From contig CALRBH010000003.1 of the NCBI GenBank assembly GCA_943354165.1, positions 5,149 to 69,148 on the forward strand: a stretch of 64,000 nucleotides of DNA, given 5' to 3'. The notes beneath the pieces were generated by a model. That model saw nothing but the letters and a program-made list of their open reading frames with translations, had not been told where the DNA came from and made no database searches. Source of the DNA: Candidatus Uhrbacteria bacterium RIFOXYB12_FULL_58_10. GTDB lineage: Bacteria; Patescibacteriota; Patescibacteriia; UBA9934; GWF2-40-263. This document shows positions 2,976 through 47,819 of this stretch, in pieces (positions within the stretch are counted from its first letter, which is position 1; every line of letters begins with the position of its first letter). The position numbers were made by a program, and so were the translations under genes.

Positions 2976-3786
2976 TAAAATTTGGCTGGTTGTCCCGGTC
3001 ATTATTGCTGTTTGCGTTATCGGCTGGATGAAGCGCGGAGCTTTGATCGATGCGGCCAATGAAGCGGCGAAAACACCACTTCCCCCCGCGGTGAGTTTTG
3101 AGGAGGTCAAAAATCCTCCTCCGATTTCTGTCCCCGTTCCAACTCCACCTCCACCTCCAACTCCTGCTCCAGCCCCAACACCTGCTCCTACGCCCACTCC
3201 TACGCCCGCTCTTCCATCCGAAATCAACCTTGCGGTTCCATTTATCGTCCAAGCCCCGTTCGCCAACTGGGATGAAACCCATGAGGAAACCTGCGAGGAA
3301 GCGTCCGTATACATGGTCGCTCTCTACTACAAGGGCGTGAAGCCGGGTGCGACGAGCGAACAGGCGGCGGAAGACGAACTCCAGAAACTTGTGAAGCTGC
3401 AGGAATCGCTGTTTGGATATTTTGAGGACACGACAGCGAGGGAAACGGCCTTGTTTGCAAAACGACAGTACGCCCTCACGTCACGTCTTCTTGTTGACCC
3501 GACGCTTGAGGAGATCAAGAAGGAGCTTGCCGCTGGGAGGCCTGTCATCGTGCCGGCCGCAGGACAAGAGCTTGGGAATCCGTACTTCACGCCACCCGGC
3601 CCCATCTATCACATGATTGTTCTGCGCGGGTATACCAAGGACGGATTCATTACAAACGATCCAGGGACAAGACGCGGGGAAGGGTTCGTCTACTCCTTCG
3701 ACACCGTCATGAATGCCATTCACGACTGGAATGCGGAGGATATTCAGAAGGGAGGAAGGGTGGTGATCGTTCTAGAAAAGAAATAG
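2953..3786 (+). CDS. Membrane-anchored C39-like peptidase domain protein with Pro/Thr-rich linker
   Basis: Signal-anchor helix, PTPAP-rich linker, then a VQAPFANWDETHEETCEEAS motif resembling Peptidase_C39_2-like domains. Confidence 0.5.
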   Translation: MRRNRSVNKIWLVVPVIIAVCVIGWMKRGALIDAANEAAKTPLPPAVSFEEVKNPPPISVPVPTPPPPPTPAPAPTPAPTPTPTPALPSEINLAVPFIVQAPFANWDETHEETCEEASVYMVALYYKGVKPGATSEQAAEDELQKLVKLQESLFGYFEDTTARETALFAKRQYALTSRLLVDPTLEEIKKELAAGRPVIVPAAGQELGNPYFTPPGPIYHMIVLRGYTKDGFITNDPGTRRGEGFVYSFDTVMNAIHDWNAEDIQKGGRVVIVLEKK

Positions 3787-3862
3787 TTAGTAGTAAGTAG
3801 ATAGTAGTTAGTAGAGTTAGTCGACGAAAATCCTACTAACTACTTACTACTATCTACTAACT
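3785..3862. repeat. AGTAGWW-heptamer palindromic element, copy 1
   Basis: Left arm 3785-3820 (agttagtagtaagtagatagtagttagtag...), loop, right arm 3833-3862 (ctactaactacttactactatctactaact). Overlaps the TAG stop at 3784-3786. xseA ATG follows at 3874. Confidence 0.85.
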
Positions 3863-5655: not shown

Positions 5656-5680
5656 CCCCCGCCGTTGGCGGGGTTTTTCT
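5656..5680 (+). terminator. Rho-independent terminator
   Basis: GC hairpin ccccgcc-gttg-gcgggg followed by a T5 run. Confidence 0.6.
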
Positions 5681-6596: not shown

Positions 6597-7097
6597 ATGG
6601 CCAAAAGCCGAGCACAGAAAGCGGCTACCATGAGTGGGATCACTGACATGTTCCGCTCCATGAAGTCCGCGGTGTTTACCAGTATTTCTGGATACACCAT
6701 GACGGATGCAGACGCCCTCCGTGCCAAGGGTCGCGAGTCCGGGGTTTCCCTGACGCTTGCGAAGAAGACCCTCCTGGTGCGCGCGCTGAAGGACGCCGGC
6801 ATCGAAGTGTCCAAGGACGCTCTCGACGGCAGCATCCTCTCCGCCGTGGGGACGGAAGACGAAGTCGCCGCCGCCAAGCTCATCGCTGACTTTGCGAAGG
6901 GCCGCGACGCGATCAAGATCGTGGGAGGATTCGTGGAAGGGAAGTTCATCGACGGACCGGCCGTCGTCTCGCTCGCGAAACTCGTGAGCAAGCATCACCA
7001 GCTCGGCCACGTGGTCGGCACGCTGAACGCCCCGATTTCCAGCTTTGTCCGCATTCTCGAGGCTGTACGGGTATCGAAGGAACCAGCTGCGGTTTAG
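6597..7097 (+). CDS. rplJ: 50S ribosomal protein L10
   Basis: MAKSRAQK... L10 signature. Precedes rplL. Confidence 0.9.
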   Translation: MAKSRAQKAATMSGITDMFRSMKSAVFTSISGYTMTDADALRAKGRESGVSLTLAKKTLLVRALKDAGIEVSKDALDGSILSAVGTEDEVAAAKLIADFAKGRDAIKIVGGFVEGKFIDGPAVVSLAKLVSKHHQLGHVVGTLNAPISSFVRILEAVRVSKEPAAV

Positions 7098-7100
7098 CGC

Positions 7101-7186
7101 AGTAAGTAGAAAGTAGTTAGTAGTAAGTAGGGTTTAACCCACGAACTGCCGACTACTATCTACTAACTACTATCTACTAACTAACT
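7101..7186. repeat. AGTAGWW-heptamer palindromic element, copy 2 (between rplJ and rplL)
   Basis: Left arm 7101-7130 (agtaagtagaaagtagttagtagtaagtag), right arm 7153-7186. The right-arm 30-mer ctactatctactaactactatctactaact is identical to copies 4 and 6. Confidence 0.85.
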
Positions 7187-7194
7187 ATCCAAAT

Positions 7195-7590
7195 ATGTCC
7201 GACGAAATCAAGAAGGAAGTTCCAGCCAAGTTCGCCAGCATCGTTTCTGAAGTGGAAAAGATGTCCGTGCTCGACCTCGCTGAGCTCGTGAAGGTGCTTG
7301 AAGACAAGTTCGGCGTTTCCGCGGCCGCTCCAGTCATGATGGCTGCAGCTGGCGGTGGCGCGGCTGTTGCGGAAGAGAAGTCTATCTTCGACGTTGAACT
7401 CACCGCTGCAGGTGCCGCTAAGATCAATGTGATCAAGGCTGTGCGCGAAATCACCGGTCTCGGCCTCAAGGAAGCCAAGGACATCGTGGACGCAGCTCCA
7501 AAGGCTGTGAAGACGGGTGTCGCGAAGGCTGAAGCTGAGGAAATGAAGAAGAAGCTCGAGGAAGCTGGTGCTACAGTTACATTGAAGTAA
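7195..7590 (+). CDS. rplL: 50S ribosomal protein L7/L12
   Basis: Ala-rich hinge and C-terminal domain ([13 protein letters not shown]) typical of L7/L12. Confidence 0.95.
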
Positions 7591-7591
7591 A

Positions 7592-7678
7592 CGACAAATA
7601 AAAAACGACAAACGACAAAAAAAGACAGAAACGACAAAGGGTAAAACCTTTGTCGTTTTTCGTTTGTCGTTTATCGCT
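7592..7678. terminator. Bidirectional terminator hairpin built from ACGACAA heptamers
   Basis: Left arm contains (acgacaa)n, loop gtaaaacc, right arm contains (ttgtcgt)n. Lies between convergent rplL (+) and the 7677-9854 (-) gene. Confidence 0.6.
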
Positions 7679-23049: not shown

Positions 23050-23054
23050 CGAGA

Positions 23055-23127
23055 GATAGTAGTAAGTAGATAGTAGTAAGTAGGCTGACGGAAAACTACT
23101 AACTACTTTCTACTAACTACTTACTAC
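23055..23127. repeat. AGTAGWW-heptamer palindromic element, copy 3
   Basis: Left arm 23055-23083 (gatagtagtaagtagatagtagtaagtag), right arm 23096-23127. Lies between the mreB stop (23049) and the GT4 ATG (23134). Confidence 0.85.
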
Positions 23128-23133
23128 GCACCT

Positions 23134-24255
23134 ATGACGATCGCGATCGACGCGAGTTCTGCGGCGAAGGGGGAAAAGACGGGGATCGAACGGTATGCGT
23201 TCGAGTTGATTCAGGCGATGAAGCGCGAACCGCTTCAGCCTGGCGAGCAGGTCGTTTTGTATTCGCTGTCCCCGCTGCCGGAACCGCTTTCGCAATTACC
23301 GGCTGGATGGAGTTCGAAGGTACTCAACTGGTCGTTCAATCGCGGATGGATGCAGGGAAGGGTGTCTCTGGAAATGCTTCGGCACGCTCCGGATGTTTTG
23401 TTCGTGCCCGGACAATCGCTCCCGATGTTTCTCCCAAAGAAATCCGTCACGACGATTCATGACCTCGGATTCCATGAAGTGAAGGACGCGTACACGTCGA
23501 AGCAGCGGAACGAGCAAGGCAAAGCCACGCGCCGCGCCGTGCGCCGTGCGACGAAGATCATTGCGCCATCGACGTTCACTGCGGATGAACTCGTGCGCAT
23601 TTATCACGCGAAACCAAATCAGCTCGCGGTCACGCCGCTCGCCGCGGATCCAGCCGTGTTTCACCGCGTCGACGAACCAGCCATTGCAGAGGTTCGCGCG
23701 CGTCATCGGTTGGGAAGAAATTATTTCCTGTACGTCGGCCGGGTGGAAACGAAAAAGAATATTGTAAATCTGATCCGCGCCTTCGACATCTTCAAATCCA
23801 CACGCGGGATCGGAGATCCGTTTGAACTCGTCCTTGCTGGGAAACCAGGCGTTGGCTATCAGACGATCCGTCCGTTCATCGATCTTTCCGTTAATAAGCA
23901 GGCGATCCGCGAGCTTGGGTATATTTCCGACACGGATGCGGCAGCACTCATGAGCGGAGCCATGGTGGTGACGTTCGTCTCTCAATACGAAGGGTTCGGC
24001 TTCCCTATTCTTGAAGCCGCCTTGTGTGGAACGCCAGTGATTGCTTCCGACATTCCGCCCTTCAGGGAACTCATGGGAAGTGCAGGGGCCGTGTTTGTGG
24101 ATCCGATCAATGCAGATGCGATCGCACGCATCATGACCGACCTCGTCCACAACCCGCCCATGCGTGAAGCGCTCGTGATGGAAGCCGGGAAGCGCGCTCT
24201 GCTATACTCTTGGCAGGAAACCGCACGTAGGACCTTCGCAGTGCTCAGGCGATAG
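23134..24255 (+). CDS. Glycosyltransferase family 1 (GT4-like)
   Basis: C-terminal EGFGFPILEAALCGTPVIASD motif of retaining GT-B glycosyltransferases. Confidence 0.8.
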   Translation: MTIAIDASSAAKGEKTGIERYAFELIQAMKREPLQPGEQVVLYSLSPLPEPLSQLPAGWSSKVLNWSFNRGWMQGRVSLEMLRHAPDVLFVPGQSLPMFLPKKSVTTIHDLGFHEVKDAYTSKQRNEQGKATRRAVRRATKIIAPSTFTADELVRIYHAKPNQLAVTPLAADPAVFHRVDEPAIAEVRARHRLGRNYFLYVGRVETKKNIVNLIRAFDIFKSTRGIGDPFELVLAGKPGVGYQTIRPFIDLSVNKQAIRELGYISDTDAAALMSGAMVVTFVSQYEGFGFPILEAALCGTPVIASDIPPFRELMGSAGAVFVDPINADAIARIMTDLVHNPPMREALVMEAGKRALLYSWQETARRTFAVLRR

Positions 24256-24333
24256 ATAGTAGAAAGTAGTTAGTAGTTAGTAGGGTTTCCTACGAATTAT
24301 CGTCTACTATCTACTAACTACTATCTACTAACT
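24253..24333. repeat. AGTAGWW-heptamer palindromic element, copy 4
   Basis: Left arm 24253-24283 starts on the TAG stop. Right-arm 30-mer 24304-24333 is identical to copies 2 and 6. The next gene starts at 24335. Confidence 0.85.
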
Positions 24334-24334
24334 C

Positions 24335-25120
24335 GTGATCCAACGTATGGACGAACTCCTCAGACATCTCATGCACCTCGGCCTCTCCGAAAAGGAAGCG
24401 GCCGTGTACGTTTCCGCGCTTGAACTCGGTCCTTCCACCGTTCAGGACATTTCGCATAAGGCCAAGGTGAACCGCGCCACCACATACGTGATGATCGAGT
24501 CGCTCGTCGGCCGCGGGCTCATGTCGAGTTTTATAAAAGGAAAGAAGCGGTATTTTTCCGCAGAGTCGCCGGACCGACTTTCCTCGCTCCTGCGTTCCGA
24601 GAAACAGGTGATCATCGAGAAGGAAGACGAACTGCAGAAAGCCCTCCCTATGCTGATGGCCCTTTTCAACGTGGAAGGAGCCAAGCCGCAGATCCGCTAT
24701 CTCGAAGGGCTCGAGGGGAAGGCGAGCGTGCGGGAAATTTTTCTTGGGCTGAAGGGGGAGTACGTCCAAATCGTTCCGCTTGACGACGTTCAGCAGAGGC
24801 CAGAAATCATGGAGACTCGTCCTAAACATATCGCGGACGTTGAGGCACAAGGAGCGTTTCATCGCGCGATTCTTGTGACAAGCGAGCAAGCCGCGGCAAA
24901 TCTCCCGCGCGTAAAAAATGGAGAGGTGCGTTATCTTCCTCCGGACAAGTTCCCTTTGCATGCCGAAATTACCGTCCGTGAAAATCACGTCTTCCTGTTT
25001 TCGTTCAAGTCGGCCACGCTTTCCATCATCATCGTCAGTAAGGAAATTGCGGACGCGGTTCGCATCATGTTTGATCTTGCCTGGCAGGGAGCGTCGGAAT
25101 ATCCCGTTCACAAGGTATAA
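24335..25120 (+). CDS. TrmB-family transcriptional regulator
   Basis: GTG at 24335 (or ATG 24347). N-terminal wHTH (LSEKEAAVYVSALELGPSTVQDISHKAKVNRATTYVMIESL) typical of TrmB. 261 aa. Confidence 0.7.
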   Translation: MIQRMDELLRHLMHLGLSEKEAAVYVSALELGPSTVQDISHKAKVNRATTYVMIESLVGRGLMSSFIKGKKRYFSAESPDRLSSLLRSEKQVIIEKEDELQKALPMLMALFNVEGAKPQIRYLEGLEGKASVREIFLGLKGEYVQIVPLDDVQQRPEIMETRPKHIADVEAQGAFHRAILVTSEQAAANLPRVKNGEVRYLPPDKFPLHAEITVRENHVFLFSFKSATLSIIIVSKEIADAVRIMFDLAWQGASEYPVHKV

Positions 25121-25124
25121 AAAA

Positions 25125-25340
25125 ATACGGATTCCTTGAGGGAATCCGCGTGCAGTCGGGAGCGGTCGTAGCACTAACCACCTTCGCCAGGGGACATCGC
25201 CTGTGTCAGGAGCCGATGGTGCCTCCGGACGGTCAGAGGGGTCATCGGACGGCGTTCCTGGTCGGTTTTCTTCATGGTGCTGCTCGTATTGTTCGTCGAG
25301 CCCGGATAGCCGACGGCCGCCACGCGTTGTGAGCGACTGC
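25125..25340 (-). ncRNA. Candidate small transcript (sRNA or 33-aa peptide mRNA), bounded by a promoter and an intrinsic terminator
   Basis: Minus-strand terminator hairpin cggattccctcaaggaatccg plus T7 run at 25128-25149. Unit length ~200 nt. Contains only a weak 33-codon ORF without RBS. Confidence 0.3.
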
Positions 25341-25342
25341 AT

Positions 25343-25371
25343 AATCTAGCAAAGGATTCCAATAATGTCAA
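25343..25371 (-). promoter_or_regulatory. Candidate sigma70-like promoter (minus strand: TTGACA-17-TAGATT)
   Basis: Read on the reverse complement as ccTTGACAttattggaatcctttgcTAGATTatg. Lies at the edge of an unusually AT-rich ~90-bp divergent region. Confidence 0.4.
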
Positions 25372-25443
25372 GGGAAACTGACAAGGAAATACATATATAA
25401 TACTAAGGAAATCTGTAAGAAGCTAAATATCGACCATGGACTC

Positions 25444-25472
25444 TTGACAGTTTCCGGCGATTGGGATAGTCT
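25444..25472 (+). promoter_or_regulatory. Candidate sigma70-like promoter (TTGACA-17-TAGTCT)
   Basis: ctTTGACAgtttccggcgattgggaTAGTCT. Divergent from the minus-strand promoter across the AT-rich spacer. Confidence 0.4.
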
Positions 25473-25479
25473 AGCGGGT

Positions 25480-25692
25480 CCCTCTGGAACTCCAGGGGAC
25501 ACCCGCGGGCTCATCCTGCGGTTAAGTCCTCCTTCGCTCCTGAAAGGGAGCTTCGGAGGATCCGCCATTTCTCTATTTGGGGAGTGGTGGGCGGACTAGT
25601 GCCGAGGAGAGAGTATCGGCATAAATCCCATCTTGTCGTGCCGGTTAAAGACCCGTTGTGAATTCAAACCTCACTCCGGGTCTTTTTCGTTT
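25480..25692 (+). ncRNA. Candidate structured ncRNA (~210 nt) with 3' intrinsic terminator
   Basis: No ATG-initiated ORF. Stable stems (gcgggt...acccgc; tcctcc ttc gctcc-tgaaa-gggagc ttc ggagga). Terminator agacccg...cgggtct plus T5 at 25650-25692. Class not identified. Confidence 0.4.
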
Positions 25693-25764
25693 TCCCCTTA
25701 AATGAAAACCGACCCCAGAGATTGGGGTCGGGCGGAACACTGGGAGAACCCAGTTTCCTGCGAG

Positions 25765-26301
25765 CTACTTCGTGAAGAACTCCTCCACGTCTTCGGTCGA
25801 GACGATGTCGACCATCGTTGCACGGCTGAGCGCCTTGGCGAAGATGGGCGAGCCCTTCTTTTTCAAGATGCGCAGGTGACGCATGGCTGCGTTGTTCAGT
25901 GCCTCGGGGCGGAAGTCGGCCGACACCAGGAGCACAGGCTCCTTGGTCTCGTCCGAGAGTCGGATGAGGACGTCAAAGCGCTCGTCCTTTTTGTTCAAGT
26001 CGACCCAGAAGGCGGCGGTCTTCAAACGGAGCCTGATTTCCTCCGCGGAGTCGAGTTCGAGGTCACGGAGCAACATCCAACACTGGTGGAGCATCCCCTG
26101 AAATTTGAGCGGGACGCCGTTCGGGATGTCGGGGTGCAGGATGTTTTTCGCGAGCTTCTGCTTCGGCGTCGACGCGGGCTTTTGGGCTTGCGTCTCGAAC
26201 TTCGGCTGCGGCGTGACTGCTTCGGCGGCGCGGATCTCGGCTTGCAGCTCGAGGTTGCTTTCGAACTGAGCGAGGGGGTTCGGGACAGTGGTCGTGGTCA
26301 T
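25765..26301 (-). CDS. Hypothetical protein
   Basis: 178 aa. ATG preceded by aggagag RBS 8 nt upstream. No recognisable family. Confidence 0.55.
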   Translation of the reverse strand: MTTTTVPNPLAQFESNLELQAEIRAAEAVTPQPKFETQAQKPASTPKQKLAKNILHPDIPNGVPLKFQGMLHQCWMLLRDLELDSAEEIRLRLKTAAFWVDLNKKDERFDVLIRLSDETKEPVLLVSADFRPEALNNAAMRHLRILKKKGSPIFAKALSRATMVDIVSTEDVEEFFTK

Positions 26302-26454
26302 GGGACTCTCCTGTATGTGGTCGCATTACTGCGACGTTCTGGATGGCTCATCGGGATGATGGCCAGGTCTGGACGGACGAGCGTGAGCTCATCGTTCCGG
26401 ATCCGGCACGCATCGTTTTTAGGCGATGCGGCGAGAAGAGTTGGTTGTGAGGTT

Positions 26455-26844
26455 CTAGTTGCTCAGGTCGATGCCGACGTTGGCGAAGTCCTGGTAGGCG
26501 CGCGGCAGGTACTCTTGGTACTCGGGCCGTTCGCCTTTCTTGAGGACGCGGGCGATGGCTTCGCGCAGCGTCTCCGGCTTGCCGGTGACGTCGATGCGGA
26601 GCGGGTCGGTGAGGAAGCCGTTGGCCCAGAGGAAGAGCTGCATGTAGCGCTCGTCCACTTTGGCTTGTTCTTCGACGAAGCGGTTGGCGACGTCCTGGAA
26701 CAGGCGGTCGGCAGTCCACTCGCAGAGGTCGGCGACGTGGATTTTCACGGCGATCGCGTAGATCGCGTTGGCGAAGTCTTCGTCGGTGTCGGGGGGCAAG
26801 TTGATGTTGGGTTCGGTGTGGGAAACGAGCTGGAGCATCATCAT
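26455..26844 (-). CDS. Hypothetical protein
   Basis: The C-terminal ~130 aa of the 210-aa ORF look protein-like. Start taken at MMM (26844); the upstream 80 codons look like non-coding read-through. Confidence 0.45.
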   Translation of the reverse strand: MMMLQLVSHTEPNINLPPDTDEDFANAIYAIAVKIHVADLCEWTADRLFQDVANRFVEEQAKVDERYMQLFLWANGFLTDPLRIDVTGKPETLREAIARVLKKGERPEYQEYLPRAYQDFANVGIDLSN

Positions 26845-27414
26845 GTGGAACCTGCTGGGGAACAGTCGCCGGGCGACCGCCGTGGGCACTTTTAGAGTGG
26901 CCAGGTATGAAGGGAAGAGATGTTCTTCCACTCGTATCTGGCCTCTCACTACACGTTGGCAGTGAGAGGCAGAGAAGCACGTGTTCAGCGCTTCTGTTGG
27001 GAACGTTCTGTGTCTGCATGGAGTACTCGGTGGTGATGACCAGTGGGCGCGGTCGGTGTTTGGAAATGGTTGTTGCCCAGCAAGCAATCAACAAGACGTT
27101 CTTATCAATTCTTTGCTAGGCCTGTGTCTCACGACAGCGGGCGAGTTTGGAAGGAAGGATTAGTATGCGATCTTCTTCTGCTGAGGCGGGAGTGCCTCAG
27201 CCTTCTTAATCGCGAGCGGTGTTTCGTACGTTTCAGGTTCGGGAATCTGGAGGGTGATGGCACATTGACCTGGGCAAGCCCTGGTGTGCGCCGTGGACAT
27301 CAGGCATATGGAGCGAGCGAGCCGAAGCCCGGTCAATCCATTTGATGTCCGTCCACTACGACCGAGGCCGCAATGGGGTTCACTCTCTCCCCCAGATTTC
27401 CGAACCCAAATTTG

Positions 27415-27593
27415 GTACAAAAAACCGACGGATGTCTGCACTCGTTTCTGTTAATTGAGTACAGGCATCCGCCGGCTCAGAATCACGTTTAGGTACGATG
27501 ATTCTAGGGATCGGTGAAAAACCAGATACTCTCTCCCGTTATGAAATTGTTTAGCTTCGGGCTTCGTAGTCCCTCGGCCGATGAACATTTCAA
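27415..27593 (-). ncRNA. Candidate sRNA or terminated leader (~180 nt) ending in an intrinsic terminator
   Basis: Minus-strand hairpin cggatgcctgtactc...gagtgcagacatccg followed by T6 (27415-27470). Contains only a 45-codon ORF with no RBS. No riboswitch class recognised. Confidence 0.35.
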
Positions 27594-27599
27594 CGCGCT

Positions 27600-27629
27600 A
27601 TTTATACCACATTTTGGCAACTTTGTCAA
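27600..27629 (-). promoter_or_regulatory. Candidate strong sigma70-like promoter (minus strand: TTGACA-17-TATAAA)
   Basis: Reverse complement reads gctcTTGACAaagttgccaaaatgtggTATAAAtagc. Confidence 0.45.
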
Positions 27630-27677
27630 GAGCTAAGCGAAGTAATTTGGCTGGGTTGGGGCTTGGAAAGTGTACGC

Positions 27678-27755
27678 AGTTAGTAGTCAGTAGAAAGTAG
27701 ATAGTAGAGTTATCCTTCAAAAACTACTAACTACTTTCTACTAACTACTAACTAA
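27678..27755. repeat. AGTAGWW-heptamer palindromic element, copy 5
   Basis: Left arm 27678-27707 (agttagtagtcagtagaaagtagatagtag), right arm 27724-27755. Lies upstream of holB (ATG 27779). This is the only copy not preceded by a plus-strand CDS. Confidence 0.85.
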
Positions 27756-27778
27756 AGATCCCATGCTATACTCCGCCC

Positions 27779-28696
27779 ATGAATCTCTTTTCCACCATCA
27801 TCGGCCATGAGCAGGCCAAATCCATCCTTTCCCGTCAGATGGAGGGAAACCAGCTTTCCCATGCCTATCTGTTTGTAGGCCCAAACGGGGTAGGACGGAC
27901 CACGATGGCCCATGCCCTCATGCGGGATTTTTTAGGCCTCGTCCCAGGGAGCCAGCTTTCGACCCACCCGGATGTCCTTTGTCTTGAGCGTGAGGTCGAT
28001 GAAGATGGAAAGCGTAAAACGGAAATCGTGGTCTCCGACGCCCGCACCTTCGTGGACTGGTTTTCGCTCTCACCCATTATGGGATCGCGCAAGGCAGCCT
28101 TCGTGGAAGAAGCGGAGCGTCTCAATACGTCGGCAGCAAATGCGCTCCTAAAAACCATCGAGGAGCCGAAAGGGGATACGCTTCTCATTCTTCGTGCTCC
28201 GTCGCTCGACGCGCTTCCGCTTACCATCGCCTCCCGTTGTCAGGTGATGCGCTTCGCGCCGGTGCCGATGAAGACGATCGCCGAAGCCGTCGAAAAACGC
28301 GGACTCGATAAAACAGAAGCGGCTTCCATTGCGCAGATGTCCTTGGGTCGCCCAGGACATGCCATTCGGTTCATTACGGACGGCGCCTTTCGCGCGGCCT
28401 ATGAAGTCGCACAGACACGTGTGCGCGAATGGCACACGTTACCGATCTATGCGCGCGTCCGAGCGGTCGCCGATCTTCTCCCAAAGGAAGAAGCCGACAA
28501 ACGCACCGTCCTTGAAGAAACGTTGAGCGGATTGGAACGCGCGGCACGTGCAGAATTAGTACGATGCGTGGAATCGGATCCGCAAGGGGCGCAGCACTGG
28601 AGCCAGGCTCTGACACGTATCCGCGACGCCCGTCTGGCCGCCTCGCATAACGGAAATCCCCAACTGTGTCTCGAACATGCCGTTTTTGCGCTATAA
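27779..28696 (+). CDS. holB: DNA polymerase III delta-prime subunit
   Basis: AAA+ clamp-loader motifs: HAYLFVGPNGVGRTT (P-loop), SRCQVMRF (sensor). Confidence 0.8.
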   Translation: MNLFSTIIGHEQAKSILSRQMEGNQLSHAYLFVGPNGVGRTTMAHALMRDFLGLVPGSQLSTHPDVLCLEREVDEDGKRKTEIVVSDARTFVDWFSLSPIMGSRKAAFVEEAERLNTSAANALLKTIEEPKGDTLLILRAPSLDALPLTIASRCQVMRFAPVPMKTIAEAVEKRGLDKTEAASIAQMSLGRPGHAIRFITDGAFRAAYEVAQTRVREWHTLPIYARVRAVADLLPKEEADKRTVLEETLSGLERAARAELVRCVESDPQGAQHWSQALTRIRDARLAASHNGNPQLCLEHAVFAL

Positions 28697-29780: not shown

Positions 29781-30335
29781 ATGCATCCGTTCGTCGTCAG
29801 CAAGCAGTCCTCGTTTAAGGCCGTCATTGAACATCTCCAACACGAGCTGTCTTCATTGCGTACCGGCCGGGCCAATCCCGCCATCGTAGAAGACATCAAG
29901 GTGATGGCGTATGAGAGCACGATGGATTTGAAAGGCGTTGCGTCCATCACCGCACAGGACACAAAAACTCTCGTGGTGCAGCCATGGGACAAGTCGCTTC
30001 TGCAGGCGATTGAAAAAGCGATCCGCGACGCGGACATCGGCATCAATCCGGCCGTGGACGGCGGTATCGTTCGCCTCAACTTCCCGATGATGACGGAAGA
30101 GAATCGCAAGAAGCTGGTGAAGACCATGAAGGAATGGTGCGAAGAATCCCGCGTGGCCCTGCGCCAGGTGCGCGAAGCCTCCCGCGAGGAAGTGATGAAG
30201 ATGGAAAAGGCCGGCGACATCGGAGAAGACGAAAAGTTCAAGATGCTCGACGAGCTCGATGAGTACACCAAGGAGCTCACGCGCAACATCGATGAAATCG
30301 CCGAATCGAAGGAGAAAGAAATCATGACGATATAG
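29781..30335 (+). CDS. frr: Ribosome recycling factor
   Basis: 184 aa with typical RRF sequence (LRTGRANPAIVEDIKV...). Confidence 0.9.
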   Translation: MHPFVVSKQSSFKAVIEHLQHELSSLRTGRANPAIVEDIKVMAYESTMDLKGVASITAQDTKTLVVQPWDKSLLQAIEKAIRDADIGINPAVDGGIVRLNFPMMTEENRKKLVKTMKEWCEESRVALRQVREASREEVMKMEKAGDIGEDEKFKMLDELDEYTKELTRNIDEIAESKEKEIMTI

Positions 30336-30415
30336 AGTTAGTAGTAAGTAGTTAGTAGTAAGTAGTTTTACTTACGATCTTTCGACTACTATCTACTAAC
30401 TACTATCTACTAACT
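30336..30415. repeat. AGTAGWW-heptamer palindromic element, copy 6
   Basis: Left arm 30336-30365 immediately after the frr TAG. Right-arm 30-mer 30386-30415 identical to copies 2 and 4. glyQS ATG at 30423. Confidence 0.85.
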
Positions 30416-33061: not shown

Positions 33062-33091
33062 CTACTGCCCACTGCCTACTCCCTACTGCCT

Positions 33092-33865
33092 ATGAAAACC
33101 ATTGTCGCCAACTGGAAAATGAACGTCGGAACCCGCGAGAGTATCGCGCTCGCTCGATCCGTCCTTTTGGTGCTGCGCGGGAAGAAAGTCATCCCGTCGC
33201 TGGTGGTCTGTCCGCCGTTTACTGCGCTCTCGGAGGTGCGTAAGATCGTCGCGCGTTCGCATGTTGCTCTTGGCGCGCAGGACGCGTCCTGGGAAGCGCA
33301 GGGGAACTTTACGGGCGAGATTTCACTCCGCATGCTCGCCGAACACGGCGTAACGCACGTGATCGTCGGCCATTCGGAGCGCCGTCGCGTTCTTGGGGAG
33401 ACCGATGAAATGGTCGGCAAGAAGTTTGCTGCGGTGCTTGCCGGTGGCCTGACACCTATCCTCTGCGTGGGGGAGACGAAGGCGGAACGCGAGGCCGGGG
33501 AAGCCGAGGCGGTGGTGCGCCGCCAGCTCACAAGCGCCCTGCGCGCGGCTGGAACCGTGCGGAAGGCCATCTGGATCGCTTATGAGCCCGTGTGGGCCAT
33601 CGGAACCGGGGTTTCCGCAGAACCGGCGGATGCGGTAAAGATGCATAGCGCGATTCGATCGATGATCGCCGATATTCTGCCATCCCTCAAAAACCAGGTC
33701 ACCGTGCTGTATGGGGGAAGCGTGGATCCCAAGAATGCCTATGCGTTTCTTCGTGAACAGGAAGTCGATGGCGTGCTCGTCGGCGGAGCGTCCGTGAAAG
33801 CAAACCAATTTGCGGAAATCGTGCAGGCAGGGGTACAGGTCATGGAGGCACAATCGGAAGTATGA
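33092..33865 (+). CDS. tpiA: Triosephosphate isomerase
   Basis: ANWKMN..., IVGHSERR, AYEPVWAIGTG, YGGSV motifs. Confidence 0.9.
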   Translation: MKTIVANWKMNVGTRESIALARSVLLVLRGKKVIPSLVVCPPFTALSEVRKIVARSHVALGAQDASWEAQGNFTGEISLRMLAEHGVTHVIVGHSERRRVLGETDEMVGKKFAAVLAGGLTPILCVGETKAEREAGEAEAVVRRQLTSALRAAGTVRKAIWIAYEPVWAIGTGVSAEPADAVKMHSAIRSMIADILPSLKNQVTVLYGGSVDPKNAYAFLREQEVDGVLVGGASVKANQFAEIVQAGVQVMEAQSEV

Positions 33866-34763: not shown

Positions 34764-34839
34764 GCCGACATAGCTCAGTTGGTAGAGCGCATCCATGGTA
34801 AGGATGAGGTCATCGGTTCAATCCCGATTGTCGGCTCCA
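34764..34839 (+). tRNA. tRNA-Thr (anticodon GGT)
   Basis: Manual cloverleaf: acceptor gccgaca/tgtcggc, D-stem gctc/gagc, anticodon stem catcc/ggatg, loop atGGTaa, T-loop ttcaatc. CCA encoded. Confidence 0.85.
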
Positions 34840-34925
34840 GGGCAGGTACCCAAGCGGTCAAAGGGGGGAGACTGTAAATCTCTTGGCTTACGCCTACGTG
34901 GGTTCGAACCCCACCCTGCCCACCA
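34840..34925 (+). tRNA. tRNA-Tyr (anticodon GTA), type II with long variable arm
   Basis: Acceptor gggcagg/cctgccc, anticodon loop ctGTAaa, long variable arm, T-arm gggttcgaacccc. CCA encoded. Confidence 0.85.
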
Positions 34926-35011
34926 TCCTTCGCTCCTTGAGAGGAGCTTCGGCTGGCGGAGCCTGGCAGCGAATGCTGCCGCACCGCCGGACGTAGCCTT
35001 AGCGAAGTCCG
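34926..35011 (+). other. Highly structured 86-nt tRNA spacer containing the recurring gctccttgagaggagcttcgg hairpin motif
   Basis: Outer pairing ccttcgct/agcgaagg. Internal hairpins gctcc-ttgag-aggagc and ggcagc-gaat-gctgcc. Confidence 0.4.
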
Positions 35012-35087
35012 GCCGCCTTAGCTCAGCTGGTAGAGCAACAGTTTTGTAAACTGTAGGTCGTCGGTTCAAATCCGACAGGCGGCTCCA
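35012..35087 (+). tRNA. tRNA-Thr (anticodon TGT)
   Basis: Acceptor gccgcct/aggcggc, anticodon stem acagt/actgt, loop ttTGTaa, T-loop ttcaaat. CCA encoded. Confidence 0.85.
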
Positions 35088-35138
35088 TTGACAGAAACCG
35101 GCTGATCCCGTAAGGTTTCGGCAATTCACCTGATATAT

Positions 35139-35294
35139 ATGTCTCAAGATAATCTCATCAAGCTCGAGTGCATCGAGTGCAAGAAGGTTGGGTACAACAC
35201 CCACAAGAACAAGAAGATGCTCAAGGAACGTCTTGAGCTCTCCAAGTTCTGCAAGTGGTGCCGCGCCCACAACAAGCACAAGGAAACCAAATAA
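35139..35294 (+). CDS. rpmG: 50S ribosomal protein L33
   Basis: 51-aa ORF MSQDNLIKLECIECKKVGYNTHKNKKMLKERLELSKFCKWCRAHNKHKETK with the C4 zinc-ribbon pattern of L33. Below the ORF-track size cutoff. Confidence 0.85.
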   Translation: MSQDNLIKLECIECKKVGYNTHKNKKMLKERLELSKFCKWCRAHNKHKETK

Positions 35295-35332
35295 AAAAGA
35301 AGGCCGCCCAGAGAACCTGGGCGGCTTTTTTA
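35295..35332. terminator. Bidirectional intrinsic terminator
   Basis: A-run, hairpin ggccgcccag-agaa-cctgggcggc, then T6. Lies between convergent rpmG and the 35330-36037 (-) gene. Confidence 0.65.
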
Positions 35333-36037
35333 TAGGGAGTGACTCATCATAATGCGGACCGCACTCAAACGCTTTTTCATGGCACTCAAGTTGTGTGGTT
35401 CATGAGGATCCTTATTGACCCAGGAACCAACATGGGTGCTTCGCGCATGTTCGCCGCGACATCGAATAAGGAACAGCCCGTTCGCGAACACGACGTCTGG
35501 GCCGCCGTCCTTCGATTCACGCAGGATTCCGAGCTTGCGTGCCAGTCCCATGCTCGGAAAGCAGGGAAGGATCGGAAGGGATCCGTGGATGGTAATAGGG
35601 ATGGCTTCATCCCACGCGGTCCAGTGCTCGTTGGCAAACACGATGAGCGGAAGCGATTCTTCCAGACAAAATTGGATGAGAGGAAGCGTCAACATGTGCT
35701 GACGCTGCTTGTCATCCAACGGGGATGGAAGGGAATAAAAGGAACTGAAGGAAGCAATGAGACAGAGCGTTTCCTCCTTTCCGCGCTTCATGGGTTCGAT
35801 CAGCGTGCGGATTTCCGTACTCGGCGCAAAAACGAACGGATCATCTAGGAACGTGGGGACATAAATCTTATTCGGTCCCGGGGTCCCGTCAAATTCCTTT
35901 TCGAGGAGGTCGGGCAGGAATGTGACATGGAAAAGAGTATTGAATGTCGCCGTGTCGTCCGGCGGGGTGTCCGGATAGGAAAGATTTGCCGGATCCCCGG
36001 CAGGCGGCCGGGAATCGTTGGTCACAAGTATCTCCAA
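35330..36037 (-). CDS. Hypothetical protein
   Basis: 235-aa ORF with protein-like composition. Its plus-strand shadow ORF looks like junk. No family recognised. Confidence 0.4.
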   Translation of the reverse strand: MEILVTNDSRPPAGDPANLSYPDTPPDDTATFNTLFHVTFLPDLLEKEFDGTPGPNKIYVPTFLDDPFVFAPSTEIRTLIEPMKRGKEETLCLIASFSSFYSLPSPLDDKQRQHMLTLPLIQFCLEESLPLIVFANEHWTAWDEAIPITIHGSLPILPCFPSMGLARKLGILRESKDGGPDVVFANGLFLIRCRGEHARSTHVGSWVNKDPHEPHNLSAMKKRLSAVRIMMSHSL

Positions 36038-36130
36038 GTTGGTGAAGGTCGAATAGTGGTATATTCGGTGGTTTTGTCAATCCATTGCGCTTCACAAAAC
36101 CGAGAGAATCTGGCACACTGCGCCCCGCAG

Positions 36131-36204
36131 AGGGGCGTAGTGAAGTGGTATCACGCGGGTCTCCAAAACCCTCATTGTTGGTTCGATTCCAACCGCCCCT
36201 GCCA
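36131..36204 (+). tRNA. tRNA-Trp (anticodon CCA)
   Basis: Acceptor aggggcg/cgcccct, D-stem gtga/tcac, anticodon loop ctCCAaa, T-arm gttggttcgattccaac. CCA encoded. Confidence 0.8.
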
Positions 36205-37306: not shown

Positions 37307-39013
37307 ATGAACACACGTTTCAAACGATTTCAGGCTGGTCTCATTGGAATAGGTTGCCTCGCACTGGCGACGATCGCCTTTCATGTTTCCGCGGAGACCG
37401 TTGGATCCTGTCCCGTCCAGATGGGGAAGCCGTACCGCAGCGTGGAATCTTCCACGGTGTTTATTGTTACGCAAGAATGCGAAAAGCGTCCCGTCTTTAA
37501 CCCTGACGTCTTCTTTTCGCACTTCGCCTCCTTTAAGGACGTGAAGTTCGTGAAAGCGTCCATCCTCGCTTCTATTCCTGACTCCAAGCTCAAGTTCATG
37601 CCCTGGGGACCACTCCGGACATTTGGTACAGGTTCGCTTGTTAAAACGGTCACGGATCCAAAAGTGTACCTTTTGGTCGGTGCTAAAGCGCATCCCATCC
37701 GGAACGAACAGGGATTTACGGAACTCGGTCTGAAGTTTTCCGACATCGAAGACGTGACGGAGGACGTGCTCGTAAAATTTAAGAAACAGAAGATCGCTAT
37801 TCAAGGGACAGAAAACGTTCCGGAGTTCCTCGTATTTAAATATCCGAACAGCCCTGAAGTTTATTTGATTCGCCGCATTAACGGCGGCGAGCGCAAGCGA
37901 ACGCATATCACCACCATGGAGGAACTTAAGCGACTCGCCCGCTTGGATCGCATCATGGTTCTCCCACGTTCCGTTTCGTTCCCGCTTGATACGTCACCGA
38001 TCGCGACCCCTGTCACCGAACCAGTCGTGACACCAACACCAACACCAACGCCTACATCAGCTCCGACACCTACGCCAACAGCTGAACAGAGTGTCCATGG
38101 ACCAACCGGCGGGCCGCATATCGATGTATCCGCGATCCCGACAGGTCATCCTGGGGTAGATCATGTACGGATCATTCCGGCGCCGTTCGCGCGGAGAGTC
38201 GCGGATGGAGTTGGCGCATTCCGCACGCAGTGTCAGATGTCGCACATGAATTTTGACGACCCGATGGTCTTTCCAGGTCAGGTCGGTGCTTCGCACCTGC
38301 ACGCATTCTTCGGCCACAGTTCCATCGACGCGTTCCTGCAACCGGGACATCTCCGCGATGCGGGGGTGAAGAGCACGTGTGGGGGAGGTACCGCCAATAA
38401 TTCCGGCTACTGGGTTCCGGCCCTCATTGGCAAGGACGGCGTTCCGCTCGTTCCGACGAACAACATCGTGTACTACAAGAGCGGGTACGGCGGAGTGGAT
38501 CCAGAGGACGTGCAGGAATTCCCACAAGGGCTCCGCATGATCGCGGGGAACGCTAAATCGAGCGCATCACAACTGCCGCTTGCGTACTGGGAGTGCGTGG
38601 ACACGTCGAGCGAACATTTCGGCAGCATCCCAGCCACCTGCCCGTCAGGGACCAAGGAATTCCAGATGTCGGTAAGCTTCCCGCAGTGTTGGGATGGGAA
38701 GAACCTCGATTCATCGGATCACAAGAGTCACATGGCGTATCCGAATAACGGATGCCCATCAACGCATCCAGTGCCTGTTCCCGCCATCTCTTTCAATATT
38801 CGCTACGCCGTTCCTACAAGCGGAATGGCCAGTCTTCGCCTCGCCTCCGACATGTATTCGACGGATCTCCCGGGAGGACTCTCTGCCCACGGCGACTGGT
38901 GGGACGGATGGGACCACGAGATCGTAAAGAAATGGATGTTGAATTGCGTGAACGCCGGGATGGATTGCGGCGGGGGGCTTATCAGTGATACGGAATATCT
39001 CGAGCACGATTAG
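37307..39013 (+). CDS. Secreted protein with PT-rich linker and C-terminal DUF1996 domain
   Basis: Signal peptide. TPTPTPTPTSAPTPTPT linker. ...GASHLHAFFGHS... motif characteristic of DUF1996. Confidence 0.65.
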   Translation: MNTRFKRFQAGLIGIGCLALATIAFHVSAETVGSCPVQMGKPYRSVESSTVFIVTQECEKRPVFNPDVFFSHFASFKDVKFVKASILASIPDSKLKFMPWGPLRTFGTGSLVKTVTDPKVYLLVGAKAHPIRNEQGFTELGLKFSDIEDVTEDVLVKFKKQKIAIQGTENVPEFLVFKYPNSPEVYLIRRINGGERKRTHITTMEELKRLARLDRIMVLPRSVSFPLDTSPIATPVTEPVVTPTPTPTPTSAPTPTPTAEQSVHGPTGGPHIDVSAIPTGHPGVDHVRIIPAPFARRVADGVGAFRTQCQMSHMNFDDPMVFPGQVGASHLHAFFGHSSIDAFLQPGHLRDAGVKSTCGGGTANNSGYWVPALIGKDGVPLVPTNNIVYYKSGYGGVDPEDVQEFPQGLRMIAGNAKSSASQLPLAYWECVDTSSEHFGSIPATCPSGTKEFQMSVSFPQCWDGKNLDSSDHKSHMAYPNNGCPSTHPVPVPAISFNIRYAVPTSGMASLRLASDMYSTDLPGGLSAHGDWWDGWDHEIVKKWMLNCVNAGMDCGGGLISDTEYLEHD

Positions 39014-39082
39014 TTAGTAGATAGTAGTAAGTAGTTAGTAGGTTTCTTTTCGATAAACCCTACTAACTACTTACTACTAACT
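39013..39082. repeat. AGTAGWW-heptamer palindromic element, copy 7
   Basis: Left arm 39013-39042 overlaps the TAG stop. Right arm 39061-39082. Downstream small ORF ATG at 39093. Confidence 0.85.
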
Positions 39083-47678: not shown

Positions 47679-47819
47679 GGACGAGACCTTACAGGGCTTG
47701 CTTTCCGTTGGTGATGAGGAAAGACTATCAGCATTTCCAGTTCCTGTCAACTTGACCCATCAACCAGTCACCCATACTGTATCTATCGTTTAGCCCCCTT
47801 ACCACCCTTACCACCCTGT

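Follow-up and report, generated by a model that had tools for sequence, protein, structure and literature searches.

What separates rplJ from rplL in this Candidatus Uhrbacteria genome, and does it act on translation between the two genes? A reading of the sequence alone had proposed that the spacer belongs to a set of stop-codon arrays which insulate adjacent cistrons or allow re-initiation between them. We analysed the window (the whole stretch of 64,000 nt) and its flank, together with genomes of other CPR (Candidate Phyla Radiation) lineages, other phyla and viral contigs. The quoted sequence was confirmed at 7095-7195: the rplJ TAG is followed by gcgcagTAAgTAGaaagTAGtTAGTAGTAAgTAG, a 22-nt loop, CTACTATCTACTAACTACTATCTACTAACTAACTATC, caaat and the rplL ATG. 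The features of this spacer are listed here.

7095-7097, + strand: rplJ stop codon TAG, 8 nt ahead of the first GTAG core of el2 (Pfam Ribosomal_L10)
7099-7189, + strand: element el2, between rplJ and rplL; fold -36.1 kcal/mol, z = -4.3; period 7/14 by Tandem Repeats Finder
7101-7130, + strand: left arm of el2, four GTAG cores
7131-7152, + strand: loop of el2, GGTTTAACCCACGAACTGCCGA
7153-7182, + strand: right arm of el2, with a tail to 7189
7195-7197, + strand: rplL start codon ATG, 12 nt past the terminal CTACTAACT of el2, without an SD motif (Pfam Ribosomal_L12)

A family of heptamer-built hairpin elements

We found that el2 is one of seven copies of a single hairpin element in the window. 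An eighth copy (el0) lies just beyond the window edge, which gives at least 8 copies per 73 kb. Each copy runs from 4-5 AGTAGWW units through a loop of 12-22 nt to 4-5 CTACTWW units, with a total length of 73-91 nt. The motif AGTAGTWAGTAG was matched 44 times in the window when one mismatch was allowed, against 0.04 expected with shuffles as control, and all matches were confined to the seven loci. Tandem Repeats Finder reported period 7 (also 14) at 7/7 loci, with 3.3-5.1 copies per arm. The remaining copies, and one array related to them, are as follows.

L205 1474-1556, inverted on the chromosome: el0, in the divergent spacer of lexA and metK, next to the start codon of lexA
3782-3862, + strand: el1, junction of xseA (ATG 3874) with the C39-like peptidase gene before it, whose stop TAG (3784-3786) falls within the first unit (AATAG); fold -36.8 kcal/mol, z = -5.8
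23054-23128, + strand: el3, between mreB (TAA 23047-23049) and a GT4 glycosyltransferase gene (ATG 23134); fold -31.0 kcal/mol, z = -3.9; five cores in the right arm
24253-24333, + strand: el4, between the GT4 glycosyltransferase gene, whose stop TAG (24253-24255) is the first array unit, and a TrmB-like regulator gene (start GTG 24335 or ATG 24347); fold -37.1 kcal/mol, z = -5.2
27682-27754, + strand: el5, 25 nt ahead of the holB ATG (27779); fold -38.6 kcal/mol, z = -7.3; no adjacent upstream gene, 27301-27681 being ORF-poor and within a divergent region
30336-30415, + strand: el6, between frr (TAG 30333-30335) and a class II aminoacyl-tRNA synthetase gene (ATG 30423); fold -42.0 kcal/mol, z = -5.9
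39009-39082, + strand: el7, ahead of a small zinc-ribbon ORF (ATG 39093 or 39120) and behind a DUF1996 gene, whose stop TAG (39011-39013) lies within the first unit (ATTAG); fold -34.3 kcal/mol, z = -5.8
33062-33092, + strand: single-arm array, (CTACTGC) x 4.4, filling the gap from the M16 peptidase stop (TAA 33059-33061) to the tpiA ATG (33092); it looks like a right arm without its left partner

The ends of the element were fixed and inverted (AGTTAGTAG...CTACTAACT), the unit number per arm was steady at 4 to 5, and the loops were partly homologous between copies. Nine copies aligned from end to end with a mean column identity of 80%, and the loops of el2 and el0 were equal at 19/22 positions after one of them was reverse-complemented. 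The GTAG/CTAC core and the 7-nt spacing were invariant, while the remaining three positions of the unit varied among copies and among the rplJ-rplL orthologues (3 genomes). We also considered a parallel relation, in which inverting every heptamer of the left arm at its own site would yield the right arm. It fits el1 and fails for el6, and was dropped.

No direct repeat of the flanking bases, the target-site duplication expected of a MITE (miniature inverted-repeat transposable element), was visible at the eight copies, whose ends are inverted; some transposon families leave no such duplication. No transposase was found among the Pfam-annotated genes over roughly 40 kb of the contig. The Pfam family of RAYT (REP-associated tyrosine transposase, IS200/IS605-type) was likewise absent from the ~40 kb of listed genes and from ten scanned flanking proteins.

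Placement and orientation relative to genes

Genes were called by codon-usage scoring (55% G+C) and checked against an independent caller. All eight copies lay between called genes. In 6/8 copies the upstream stop codon stood 0-8 nt ahead of the element or within its first unit, and three upstream genes terminated on a TAG in register with the array. In every copy a start codon followed within 1-25 nt, the distances from the last CTACTAACT being 9, 11, 12, 5, 1-13, 25, 7 and 10 nt. The proposal that the elements sit flush with gene boundaries was borne out by these counts. Intergenic gaps were otherwise tiny, and the elements took up nearly all of each. Two copies occurred in divergent spacers of considerable length (245 nt; at least about 480 nt), yet these too were 9 and 25 nt from a start codon. 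At most co-directional junctions of the genome, where gaps were 1-45 nt, the element was missing.

The orientation of the loop tracked the direction of the downstream gene, el0 being flipped together with lexA. The constant features are thus a nearby downstream start codon and a loop orientation tied to the downstream gene. A fixed loop orientation has no tolerance-based reason in a near-palindrome, suggesting either a function at the RNA level or a strand-specific copying mechanism.

No SD motif was found downstream of the elements, before the next start codons, in agreement with the sequence-only reading. This is a trait of the genome rather than of these junctions, as an SD-like motif preceded only 11/74 genes. 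The genome-wide start context was G-poor, with C at -3 and T at -1, and the 3' arm of the element has no G, like the start regions of the genome generally. A common 3' tail, GATCCC or CGCAYT, which links the right arm to the ATG, was rejected as part of the element; it equals the genome-wide start context.

Stop codons in the arms

Each arm had been said to present stop codons in all three frames. For the left arm, read on the + strand, this was correct in 7/7 copies. The right arm contained TAA in only one or two frames of the + strand, so the statement holds only for the arm that faces the ribosome. The reverse complement of the right arm did carry stops in all three frames in 7/7 copies, as had been claimed for the other strand. 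Coverage of all frames is a matter of arithmetic, since the unit bears TAG and recurs every 7 nt, a number not divisible by 3. In part the intergenic placement is forced as well: an element with such stops could not survive within a gene. With regard to the insulation or re-initiation role, the elements are stop-rich toward ribosomes on both strands, but 2/8 copies (el5 and el0) have no upstream cistron. The role proposed for the stops is only partly supported.

RNA folding, terminator, promoter and Rfam searches

RNA folding gave minimum free energies of -31 to -42 kcal/mol with z-scores of -3.9 to -7.3 and an interrupted stem of about 29 bp; the consensus fold had 26 pairs. The RNAalifold covariation term was +1.23, and variable positions were unpaired in about one third of the copies. 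Within-family covariation lends the RNA structure no support. The arms were still complementary across the three rplJ-rplL orthologues, which is not statistical proof of structure because there are three sequences and the repeats are internally homogenised.

Elements of this family resemble intrinsic terminators in forming a stable stem-loop right after a stop codon. They differ in that their stems are AT-rich, their loops span 12-22 nt, a T-run is lacking and a start codon follows within 1-25 nt. The terminator-like sites listed for positions 1-40000 included none of the seven loci, and we therefore rejected a canonical terminator. Canonical terminators were flagged in the same region at 5657-5673, 7627-7660, 25731-25709 and 35325-35303, so the contrast drawn earlier with the terminators made of a GC stem and a T-run elsewhere in the window was upheld. 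At 7589-7676 the same genome has a clear bidirectional terminator made from a different heptamer.

A promoter with a leaderless start was also rejected, as neither inspection by eye for a -10-like hexamer at a set distance from the start codons nor a sigma-70 scan gave anything consistent at the elements on the gene strand. Membership in a known RNA family was searched for with Rfam 15, where only four tRNAs in the window reached the gathering score. The best that el5 gave were microRNA-precursor hairpins, all sub-threshold (28 bits, with 53-90 needed).

The rplJ-rplL spacer in other CPR genomes

Two distant relatives, L123 and L124 (L10 about 63% identical), have an rplJ-rplL spacer of the same layout: a stop codon, 9-10 nt, four GTAG units, a loop, 4-5 CTAC units and an ATG. 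Their units are GTAGGTG/CTACCCC and GTAGTAC/CTACGCA, and a covariance model of the element scored these spacers at 41-43 bits. In these relatives the geometry of rplJ-rplL is conserved despite sequence turnover. The el1 site was empty in both L123 and L124. In a relative carrying P0002 the rplJ-rplL spacer is 28 nt by gene coordinates, and in many CPR it is 2-40 nt; the element is dispensable at this position.

Other CPR rplJ-rplL spacers contain analogous inverted heptad arrays without any stop, for example with the units TACAAAT (L125) and GCGAGTT (L143). In L058 (Paceibacterota) we found the same element between tuf and rpsJ, in the stop-stem-start layout of the window copies and with a right arm equal to that of el1 at 30/30 positions. 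Single-arm arrays adjoin start codons in L030 and L070. Across 80 CPR rplL loci, short non-triplet tandem arrays stood beside start codons in 14/55 intergenic arrays, against 11% of random intergenic windows; this trend is weak, and a general enrichment at CPR rplL starts was not relied on.

Arrays in other phyla and in viral contigs

AGTAGWW arrays from other phyla followed an ORF end in the stop sense in 56/101 cases and in the opposite sense in 14/101, compared with 5% for random positions. Hairpins of the same type in Bacteroidota, Acidobacteriota, Actinomycetota and Firmicutes adjoined ORF 3' ends in 18/20 cases, and about 7/20 were between convergent ORFs. The AGTAGAA/CTACTTT variants in other phyla were T-rich past the stem. 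For the insulation or re-initiation role these genomes cut both ways. The stop-sense arrays after ORF ends agree with it; the hairpins between convergent genes, where re-initiation is impossible as there is no downstream start, and the stop-free arrays of other CPR do not.

AGTAGWW arrays were also found in 33 viral contigs, mostly as long one-directional simple repeats of 2 to 18 units. Spread by a phage vector was rejected: two of these contigs had an inverted partner and 0/33 had shared loops.

Relation to known repeat families

Gene-adjacent heptamer repeats are an old finding in cyanobacteria; giant sulfur bacteria and some Bacteroidetes joined their known hosts in 2015. In cyanobacteria a 7-bp STRR (short tandemly repeated repetitive) hairpin lies between hupS and hupL, where an effect on transcript stability or translational coupling was proposed (PMC2670836). 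Our elements share with STRR the tandem 7-nt units, the intergenic or intercistronic position in operons, the capacity to form hairpins and the many copies per genome. They differ in host and unit, STRR being found in filamentous cyanobacteria and the present AGTAGWW/CTACTWW units in CPR/Patescibacteria (Candidatus Uhrbacteria, to which L10 homologues assign the host). Canonical STRR units are of the kind CCCCAGT. A further difference is that the present element stands as a discrete unit whose length is set (4+4, with defined ends and a partly conserved loop), lies ~10 nt from a start and is oriented with the downstream gene. In our literature search we did not find fixed length, start distance or gene-tied orientation described for STRR.

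Direct repeats of the heptamer TAACTGA occur in marine Beggiatoaceae, some Cyanobacteria and Bacteroidetes (MacGregor 2015, PMC4679880). Such arrays stand just upstream of SD-less starts, also inside ribosomal-protein operons; S1, Csp or CsrA-like binders were proposed, only one of the 170 sets in the genome was an indirect repeat, and RNA structure was not predicted (PMC4679880). As with TAACTGA, our arrays are positioned a few nt (here 1-25 nt) before start codons without a ribosome-binding site, their placement is limited by forward-sense stops, and their distribution across phyla is patchy. The right-arm unit CTACTAA, when rotated to TAACTAC, even shares 5/7 bases with TAACTGA. In contrast to these direct repeats, the present units are different, are fixed in copy number and form inverted pairs that give a long stem.

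The GTAG core also suggested membership in the class of REP (repetitive extragenic palindrome), BIME and REPIN elements, with its GTAG-tagged REPs. Shared features are the short multicopy extragenic palindromes, mostly just past coding regions, the conserved GTAG, plausible transcription as RNA hairpins and a family sequence specific to the genome. REPs are 20-40 bp palindromes with stems of 5-13 bp (Di Nocera 2013, PMC3733652, Table 1), whereas our elements are 73-91 nt with interrupted stems of 26 pairs. In a REP one GTAG stands as an unpaired tail; each arm of our elements has four, spaced at 7 nt and paired with CTAC, and this heptad periodicity is foreign to REP. Since the elements depart from REP in the size, stem and tail that define it, membership was rejected.

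Among long simple repeats, those of period 7 form the most frequent class in many prokaryote genomes, according to Mrazek et al. 2007 as cited in PMC4679880. AGTAGWW arrays, sporadic in many phyla and viral contigs, resemble this class. In such repeats the unit number varies and there is no partner arm, whereas in the window family the number is fixed, the arms are inverted and the loop is shared.

Possible roles of the elements

The reading we put forward, with about even confidence, is that of a dispersed STRR/REP-like palindrome built of heptamers and transcribed as an intercistronic or leader RNA hairpin, its stops being mainly a by-product and a tolerance filter. The elements would be transcribed within operon or leader RNA, where the hairpin may act as structural punctuation. 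It would provide a stable 3' stem for the upstream cistron and shield the SD-less, G-poor start region of the next cistron from pairing with upstream coding RNA. The stops would come mainly from a TAG-bearing unit of period 7 combined with survivorship: only units that close every incoming reading frame could adjoin, or supply, a gene's stop codon. New copies would be made by copying an existing element rather than by separate slippage at each site. We read the stops in this way because three upstream genes terminate on an in-register TAG and because other CPR have stop-free heptad arrays. The empty el1 site in the two relatives and the dispensability of the element at rplJ-rplL both count against this explanation, as do the lack of support from covariation, the fixed loop orientation, and the absence of visible target-site duplications and of a transposase in the roughly 40 kb annotated.

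Alternatively, the stops might be the purpose of the element, as part of a dedicated insulator or re-initiation device. The stop-rich 5' arm would release ribosomes at the foot of the stem, the stem would bring stop and start within about 10-20 nt of each other across its base, and the ribosome or a fresh 30S would start on the G-free, SD-less leader. By analogy, this would be the bacterial counterpart of hairpin-bridged shunting or of termination-reinitiation. The layout is consistent with such a device: in 6/8 copies the stem comes 0-10 nt past the stop and is followed by the start at 1-25 nt, and L123, L124 and L058 are alike in this respect. A ribosome on the stop codon would, from the coordinates, open only the outermost 4-5 bp, so that the stem would persist. 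Near-absence of SD motifs in the genome, G-depleted start regions, AGTAG-sense arrays after ORF ends in many phyla and the orientation tied to the downstream gene point the same way. We nevertheless consider it unlikely. Besides the two copies that lack an upstream cistron, the same hairpins in other phyla are often placed between convergent genes, other CPR have analogous arrays devoid of stops, most co-directional junctions of the genome (gaps 1-45 nt) do without the element, and the all-frame coverage is the arithmetic of period 7. In addition, termination-reinitiation coupling is reported to require gene overlaps or very short distances (PMC10666635).

The invariant core and spacing, with three variable positions in copies and orthologues alike, would also suit arrays of binding sites for a protein that reads GUAG/CUAC in RNA or GTAG/CTAC in DNA at 7-nt spacing, as part of a global post-transcriptional or transcriptional regulon. 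The unit number fixed at 4+4, the identical arms in a distant CPR lineage, the single-arm arrays adjoining starts at 33062-33092 and in L030 and L070, and the same proposal made for the TAACTGA repeats (PMC4679880) all speak for it. We regard it as quite improbable: we identified no candidate binder, direct binding-site arrays have no need of complementary arms, and the same spacer in other CPR holds inverted heptad arrays with unrelated units, for which reason a single conserved binder cannot explain the architecture generally. Cleavage of the polycistronic RNA between cistrons at RNase III-type sites, by analogy with the early region of phage T7, might leave the G-free 3' arm as an unstructured leader. 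The ~29 bp of interrupted double-stranded RNA between cistrons and the periodic 1x1 and 2x2 internal loops, of a kind conserved across orthologues, would fit, as would a 3' arm that lacks G like the start regions of the genome generally. This reading is based on structural analogy and leaves the copies between convergent genes of other phyla unexplained, and we think it very improbable. Highly improbable, finally, is a split of operons into units by terminators or attenuators, perhaps bidirectional, that lack a U-tract. Strong hairpins directly after stop codons, the frequent position between convergent ORFs in other phyla (the classic site of bidirectional terminators, with AGTAGAA/CTACTTT variants that are T-rich after the stem) and the bidirectional terminator that this genome makes from another heptamer at 7589-7676 would favour them. 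The window elements, however, lack a T-run, their loops span 12-22 nt, and the scan flagged none of them. There is no room for a promoter after the element because the next start codon is 1-25 nt away, and no sigma-70-like site was found in or beside the elements on the + (gene) strand. A stop of transcription between rplJ and rplL would starve rplL, and el0, in the divergent spacer of lexA and metK, adjoins the lexA start rather than a gene end.

For the heptamer repeats as a group, this CPR genome is an unusually clean case, with fixed size, fixed start distance, gene-tied orientation and a rplJ-rplL geometry that outlives sequence. Such regularities lead to specific, testable predictions on RNA ends, ribosome occupancy and reporter behaviour, and they bear on how genes start in streamlined bacteria largely without Shine-Dalgarno motifs. 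If the elements are selfish, they would represent a repeat shaped to lie directly against genes where spare DNA is nearly absent, through inward-facing stops, a G-free arm beside the start and a constant size.

A bolder reading, which we rate as rather unlikely, is a portable, orientation-specific cassette for translation punctuation in bacteria that do not use Shine-Dalgarno pairing, spreading horizontally among CPR lineages. The stop-rich 5' arm would unload ribosomes, the fixed 4+4 heptad stem would bridge the stop and the next start, and the G-free 3' arm would be the initiation leader; downstream cistrons would then start by hairpin-bridged re-initiation or from a defined standby site. 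Were this so, the STRR/TAACTGA class of heptamers, unexplained since its description, would gain a function. Horizontal spread would be consistent with the right arm shared by Uhrbacteria and Paceibacterota, equal at 30/30 positions.

Heptad hairpin elements and their gene setting

The source of the contig is a metagenome assembly of groundwater type, and L10 homologues assign it to Candidatus Uhrbacteria (Patescibacteria/CPR, Candidate Phyla Radiation), the best relatives being 61-68% identical. Genes were called by codon-usage scoring and by an independent caller. The rplJ-rplL spacer (7095-7195) was present as the sequence-only reading had reported it: the TAG stop of rplJ, 8 nt, four GTAG-core units (+ strand: AGTAGAA, AGTAGTT, AGTAGTA, AGTAG), a 22-nt loop, four to five CTAC-core units, 5-12 nt and the ATG of rplL. 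With one mismatch allowed, AGTAGTWAGTAG matched the window 44 times, where shuffles predict 0.04, and every match fell in one of seven loci of the same build (el1-el7). An eighth copy (el0) lies outside the window.

Heptad hairpin elements, with upstream / downstream gene
el0, L205 (same contig) 1474-1556, 7.3 kb before the window start: no upstream gene / lexA (- strand)
el1, 3782-3862: C39 peptidase / xseA
el2, 7099-7189: rplJ / rplL
el3, 23054-23128: mreB / GT4
el4, 24253-24333: GT4 / trmB-like
el5, 27682-27754: no upstream gene / holB
el6, 30336-30415: frr / class II aaRS
el7, 39009-39082: DUF1996 / small zinc-ribbon ORF

Nine copies, one of them from another genome, were aligned end to end with a mean column identity of 80%. 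All carry the ends AGTTAGTAG...CTACTAACT, each arm has four or five units, and the loops are homologous in part. The sequence-only observation is confirmed, and it applies to a whole family that obeys clear rules.

The genome is compact (86% coding by codon-usage calls) and most co-directional gaps are 1-45 nt long; gaps with an element measure 79-97 nt and consist almost entirely of it. A start codon was found 1-25 nt downstream of all eight copies (typically 5-13), and the upstream stop fell 0-8 nt before the element in 6/8. The exceptions on the stop side, el5 and el0, lie in divergent spacers without an upstream cistron, yet are close to a start codon (el5 25 nt from it in a spacer of about 480 nt or more, el0 9 nt from it in a 245-nt spacer). 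Downstream starts did lack Shine-Dalgarno (SD) motifs, but this is not special to the elements, since only 11 of 74 genes have an SD-like motif in front. Between -20 and -1, the start regions of window genes were depleted in G; C occupied -3 in 46% and T occupied -1 in 59%. The anti-SD-like string ACCTCC or ATCCTCC was seen in some upstream regions (those of the genes with ATG at 31787 and 46799).

Stop codons

The left arm (AGTAGWW units) closed all three frames of the + strand in 7/7 window copies, and the reverse complement of the right arm (CTACTWW units) did so on the - strand, also in 7/7, in agreement with the sequence-only reading. That each arm carries stops in all three frames proved too broad: on the + strand, the right arm has TAA in one or two frames only, so that ribosomes from either side meet inward-facing stops. 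The all-frame coverage follows from arithmetic, as a TAG-bearing unit of period 7 visits all three frames within three units. At el1, el4 and el7 the upstream gene ended on a TAG that keeps the register of the array; the C39 peptidase before el1 ended at the same point as its orthologues.

RNA structure and loop orientation

Every copy was predicted to fold into a long interrupted RNA hairpin (-31 to -42 kcal/mol; z = -3.9 to -7.3 versus shuffles) with the GTAG/CTAC cores paired in every case. Full pairing of the three variable positions between cores was limited to about one unit in three, leaving periodic 1x1 or 2x2 internal loops. RNAalifold returned 26 pairs for the family, yet no net covariation (term +1.23), and no Rfam family matched the elements. 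They lack a T-run and none was flagged by the terminator scan, while GC-stem plus T-run terminators were present at other sites; the distinction from intrinsic terminators was therefore upheld. A second heptamer palindrome, (AAACGAC)n, loop, (GTCGTTT)n, was found between the convergent rplL and a 725-aa ORF (7589-7676), with T-rich tails and a terminator-like flag on both strands; it seems to be a bidirectional terminator likewise built of heptad repeats.

The el0 loop matched the reverse complement of the el2 loop at 19/22 positions. As el0 lies upstream of lexA on the - strand, loop orientation tracks the downstream gene and not the chromosome strand. Loops could be oriented in 7/8 copies, and all seven agreed with the direction of the downstream gene; the loop of el7 is close to a palindrome in its own right. 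With arms that are almost palindromes, this gene-linked orientation would not be expected from a filter based on tolerance alone; it suggests either a role at the RNA level or copying by a strand-specific mechanism.

The rplJ-rplL spacer in relatives and other CPR

L123 and L124, two further Uhrbacteria, have kept the synteny around rplJ-rplL; their spacers (87 and 85 nt) have the el2 architecture built of different units and scored 41-43 bits with a covariance model of the window family. The distance from the stop to the first core was 8-10 nt in the three genomes. Core, period, unit number and placement have thus outlived the remaining sequence. The el1 site was empty in both relatives.

Inverted arrays in rplJ-rplL spacers
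L123: (GTAGGTG/GTAGTTG) x 4, loop, (CTACCCC) x 4
L124: (GTAGTAC/GTAGGAG) x 4, loop, (CTACGCA) x 4-5
L125: TACAAAT/ATTCGTA
L143: GCGAGTT/CCGTAAC
L184: AACNAGT/GTTACNA

The element is not indispensable at this site, as the spacer is only 28 nt in the relative carrying P0002 and 2-40 nt in many CPR among 80 further rplL loci. Other CPR in this set had inverted short-period arrays of unrelated units, some of them stop-free (L125 and L143 are examples). Such lineage-specific arrays were seen in L125, L127, L143, L148/L150, L154, L156 and L184, often mismatched once, systematically, in each unit (TACAAAT opposite ATTCGTA), which looks like internal homogenisation of the arms. A Paceibacterota MAG (L058) carries an element between tuf and rpsJ whose right arm matches the el1 right arm at 30/30 positions and whose loop differs; the arm identity suggests horizontal spread or strong constraint.

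Occurrence beyond CPR

Exact four-unit AGTAGWW arrays were found in >120 genomes of many phyla and AGTAGWW arrays in 33 viral contigs, the latter mostly long and one-directional. In the genome set, an AGTAG-sense array followed an ORF end within 40 nt in 56/101 cases, compared with 14/101 in the opposite orientation and 5% at random positions. The covariance model matched hairpin versions at about 30 loci in Bacteroidota, Acidobacteriota, Actinomycetota and Firmicutes. Among the best 20 matches, with ORFs called mechanically, an ORF 3' end abutted an arm in 18, about 7 lay between convergent ORFs and 3 repeated the co-directional stop-hairpin-start layout; part of this signal is automatic, because with mechanical calls an arm closes any frame running into it. 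Unit number varied from 3 to more than 13 in the distant phyla, whereas the CPR family is fixed at 4+4. AGTAG/CTACT hairpins occurred in L076, L039, L027, L079, L080, L095 and others (genomes of Bacteroidota, Actinomycetota and Acidobacteriota), often between convergent ORFs with ends that abut or enter the two arms.

Interpretation

Stop-codon insulation and re-initiation between cistrons, the role first proposed, is still a possible purpose of the elements. It is weakened by el5 and el0, which have no upstream gene, by the hairpins between convergent genes in other phyla, where re-initiation is impossible, by the stop-free CPR analogues and by the arithmetic origin of the all-frame property.

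Similar repeats have been described. STRR (short tandemly repeated repetitive) heptamers capable of forming hairpins lie between hupS and hupL in several cyanobacteria; transcript stability or translational coupling was proposed, the function being unknown according to that paper (PMC2670836). TAACTGA direct repeats of marine Beggiatoaceae, some Cyanobacteria and Bacteroidetes stand just 5' of start codons without a ribosome-binding site, also in ribosomal-protein operons; their forward-orientation stops restrict the possible sites, and S1, Csp or CsrA-type binders were proposed (PMC4679880). Nostoc heptamer repeats near start codons or promoters are reported to alter reporter expression, by a mechanism left unresolved there (preprint 10.1101/2022.06.06.494920). 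Repetitive extragenic palindromes (REP) share the GTAG tetranucleotide, but are 20-40 bp long with a single unpaired GTAG tag (PMC3733652), a definition that excludes the window elements.

The elements are a new form of a known, unexplained repeat type. The most likely reading, to which we give roughly even chances, is a heptad palindrome of STRR/REP-like character that is dispersed through the genome and transcribed into a hairpin in intercistronic or leader RNA. The stop content would then be mainly a by-product plus a tolerance filter, and the hairpin may act as structural punctuation of SD-less operon RNA. Fixed 4+4 geometry, gene-linked orientation and conservation at rplJ-rplL argue against mere junk; given the missing covariation and patchy presence, any functional assignment from sequence is tentative.

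Other features of the contig

Short tandem arrays also end exactly at start codons at 47796-47817, (CCCTTACCA) x 2.4 before the ATG at 47820, and at L205 2805-2841, just outside the window, (TTAGTGTC) x 4 before the start of a 1463-aa Big_7 protein. The lexA-metK divergent spacer (L205 1600-1700, 7.2 kb before the window start) contains a perfect DnaA-box-like TGTGGATAA, a near-perfect TCATCCACA, weaker TGGAT motifs and GTTCG/CGAAC repeats (possible LexA operators), and could be a promoter under DnaA control or a region near the origin.

At 25120-27780 the independent caller gave a 397-aa + strand ORF of implausible sequence without a Pfam match; codon usage preferred - strand ORFs at 25765-26301 and 26455-26844. 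No convincing ORF or Rfam match was found at 27301-27681, possibly an unrecognised non-coding RNA or long leader. At 55737-55787, within the - strand ORF 54695-56008, 4.2 perfect tandem copies of the 12-mer TCGCCTTCACCT presumably encode a tetrapeptide repeat. A tRNA cluster (Thr-GGT, Tyr-GTA, Thr-TGT, Trp-CCA) at 34764-36204 adjoins rpmG (L33) and a GIY-YIG domain gene.
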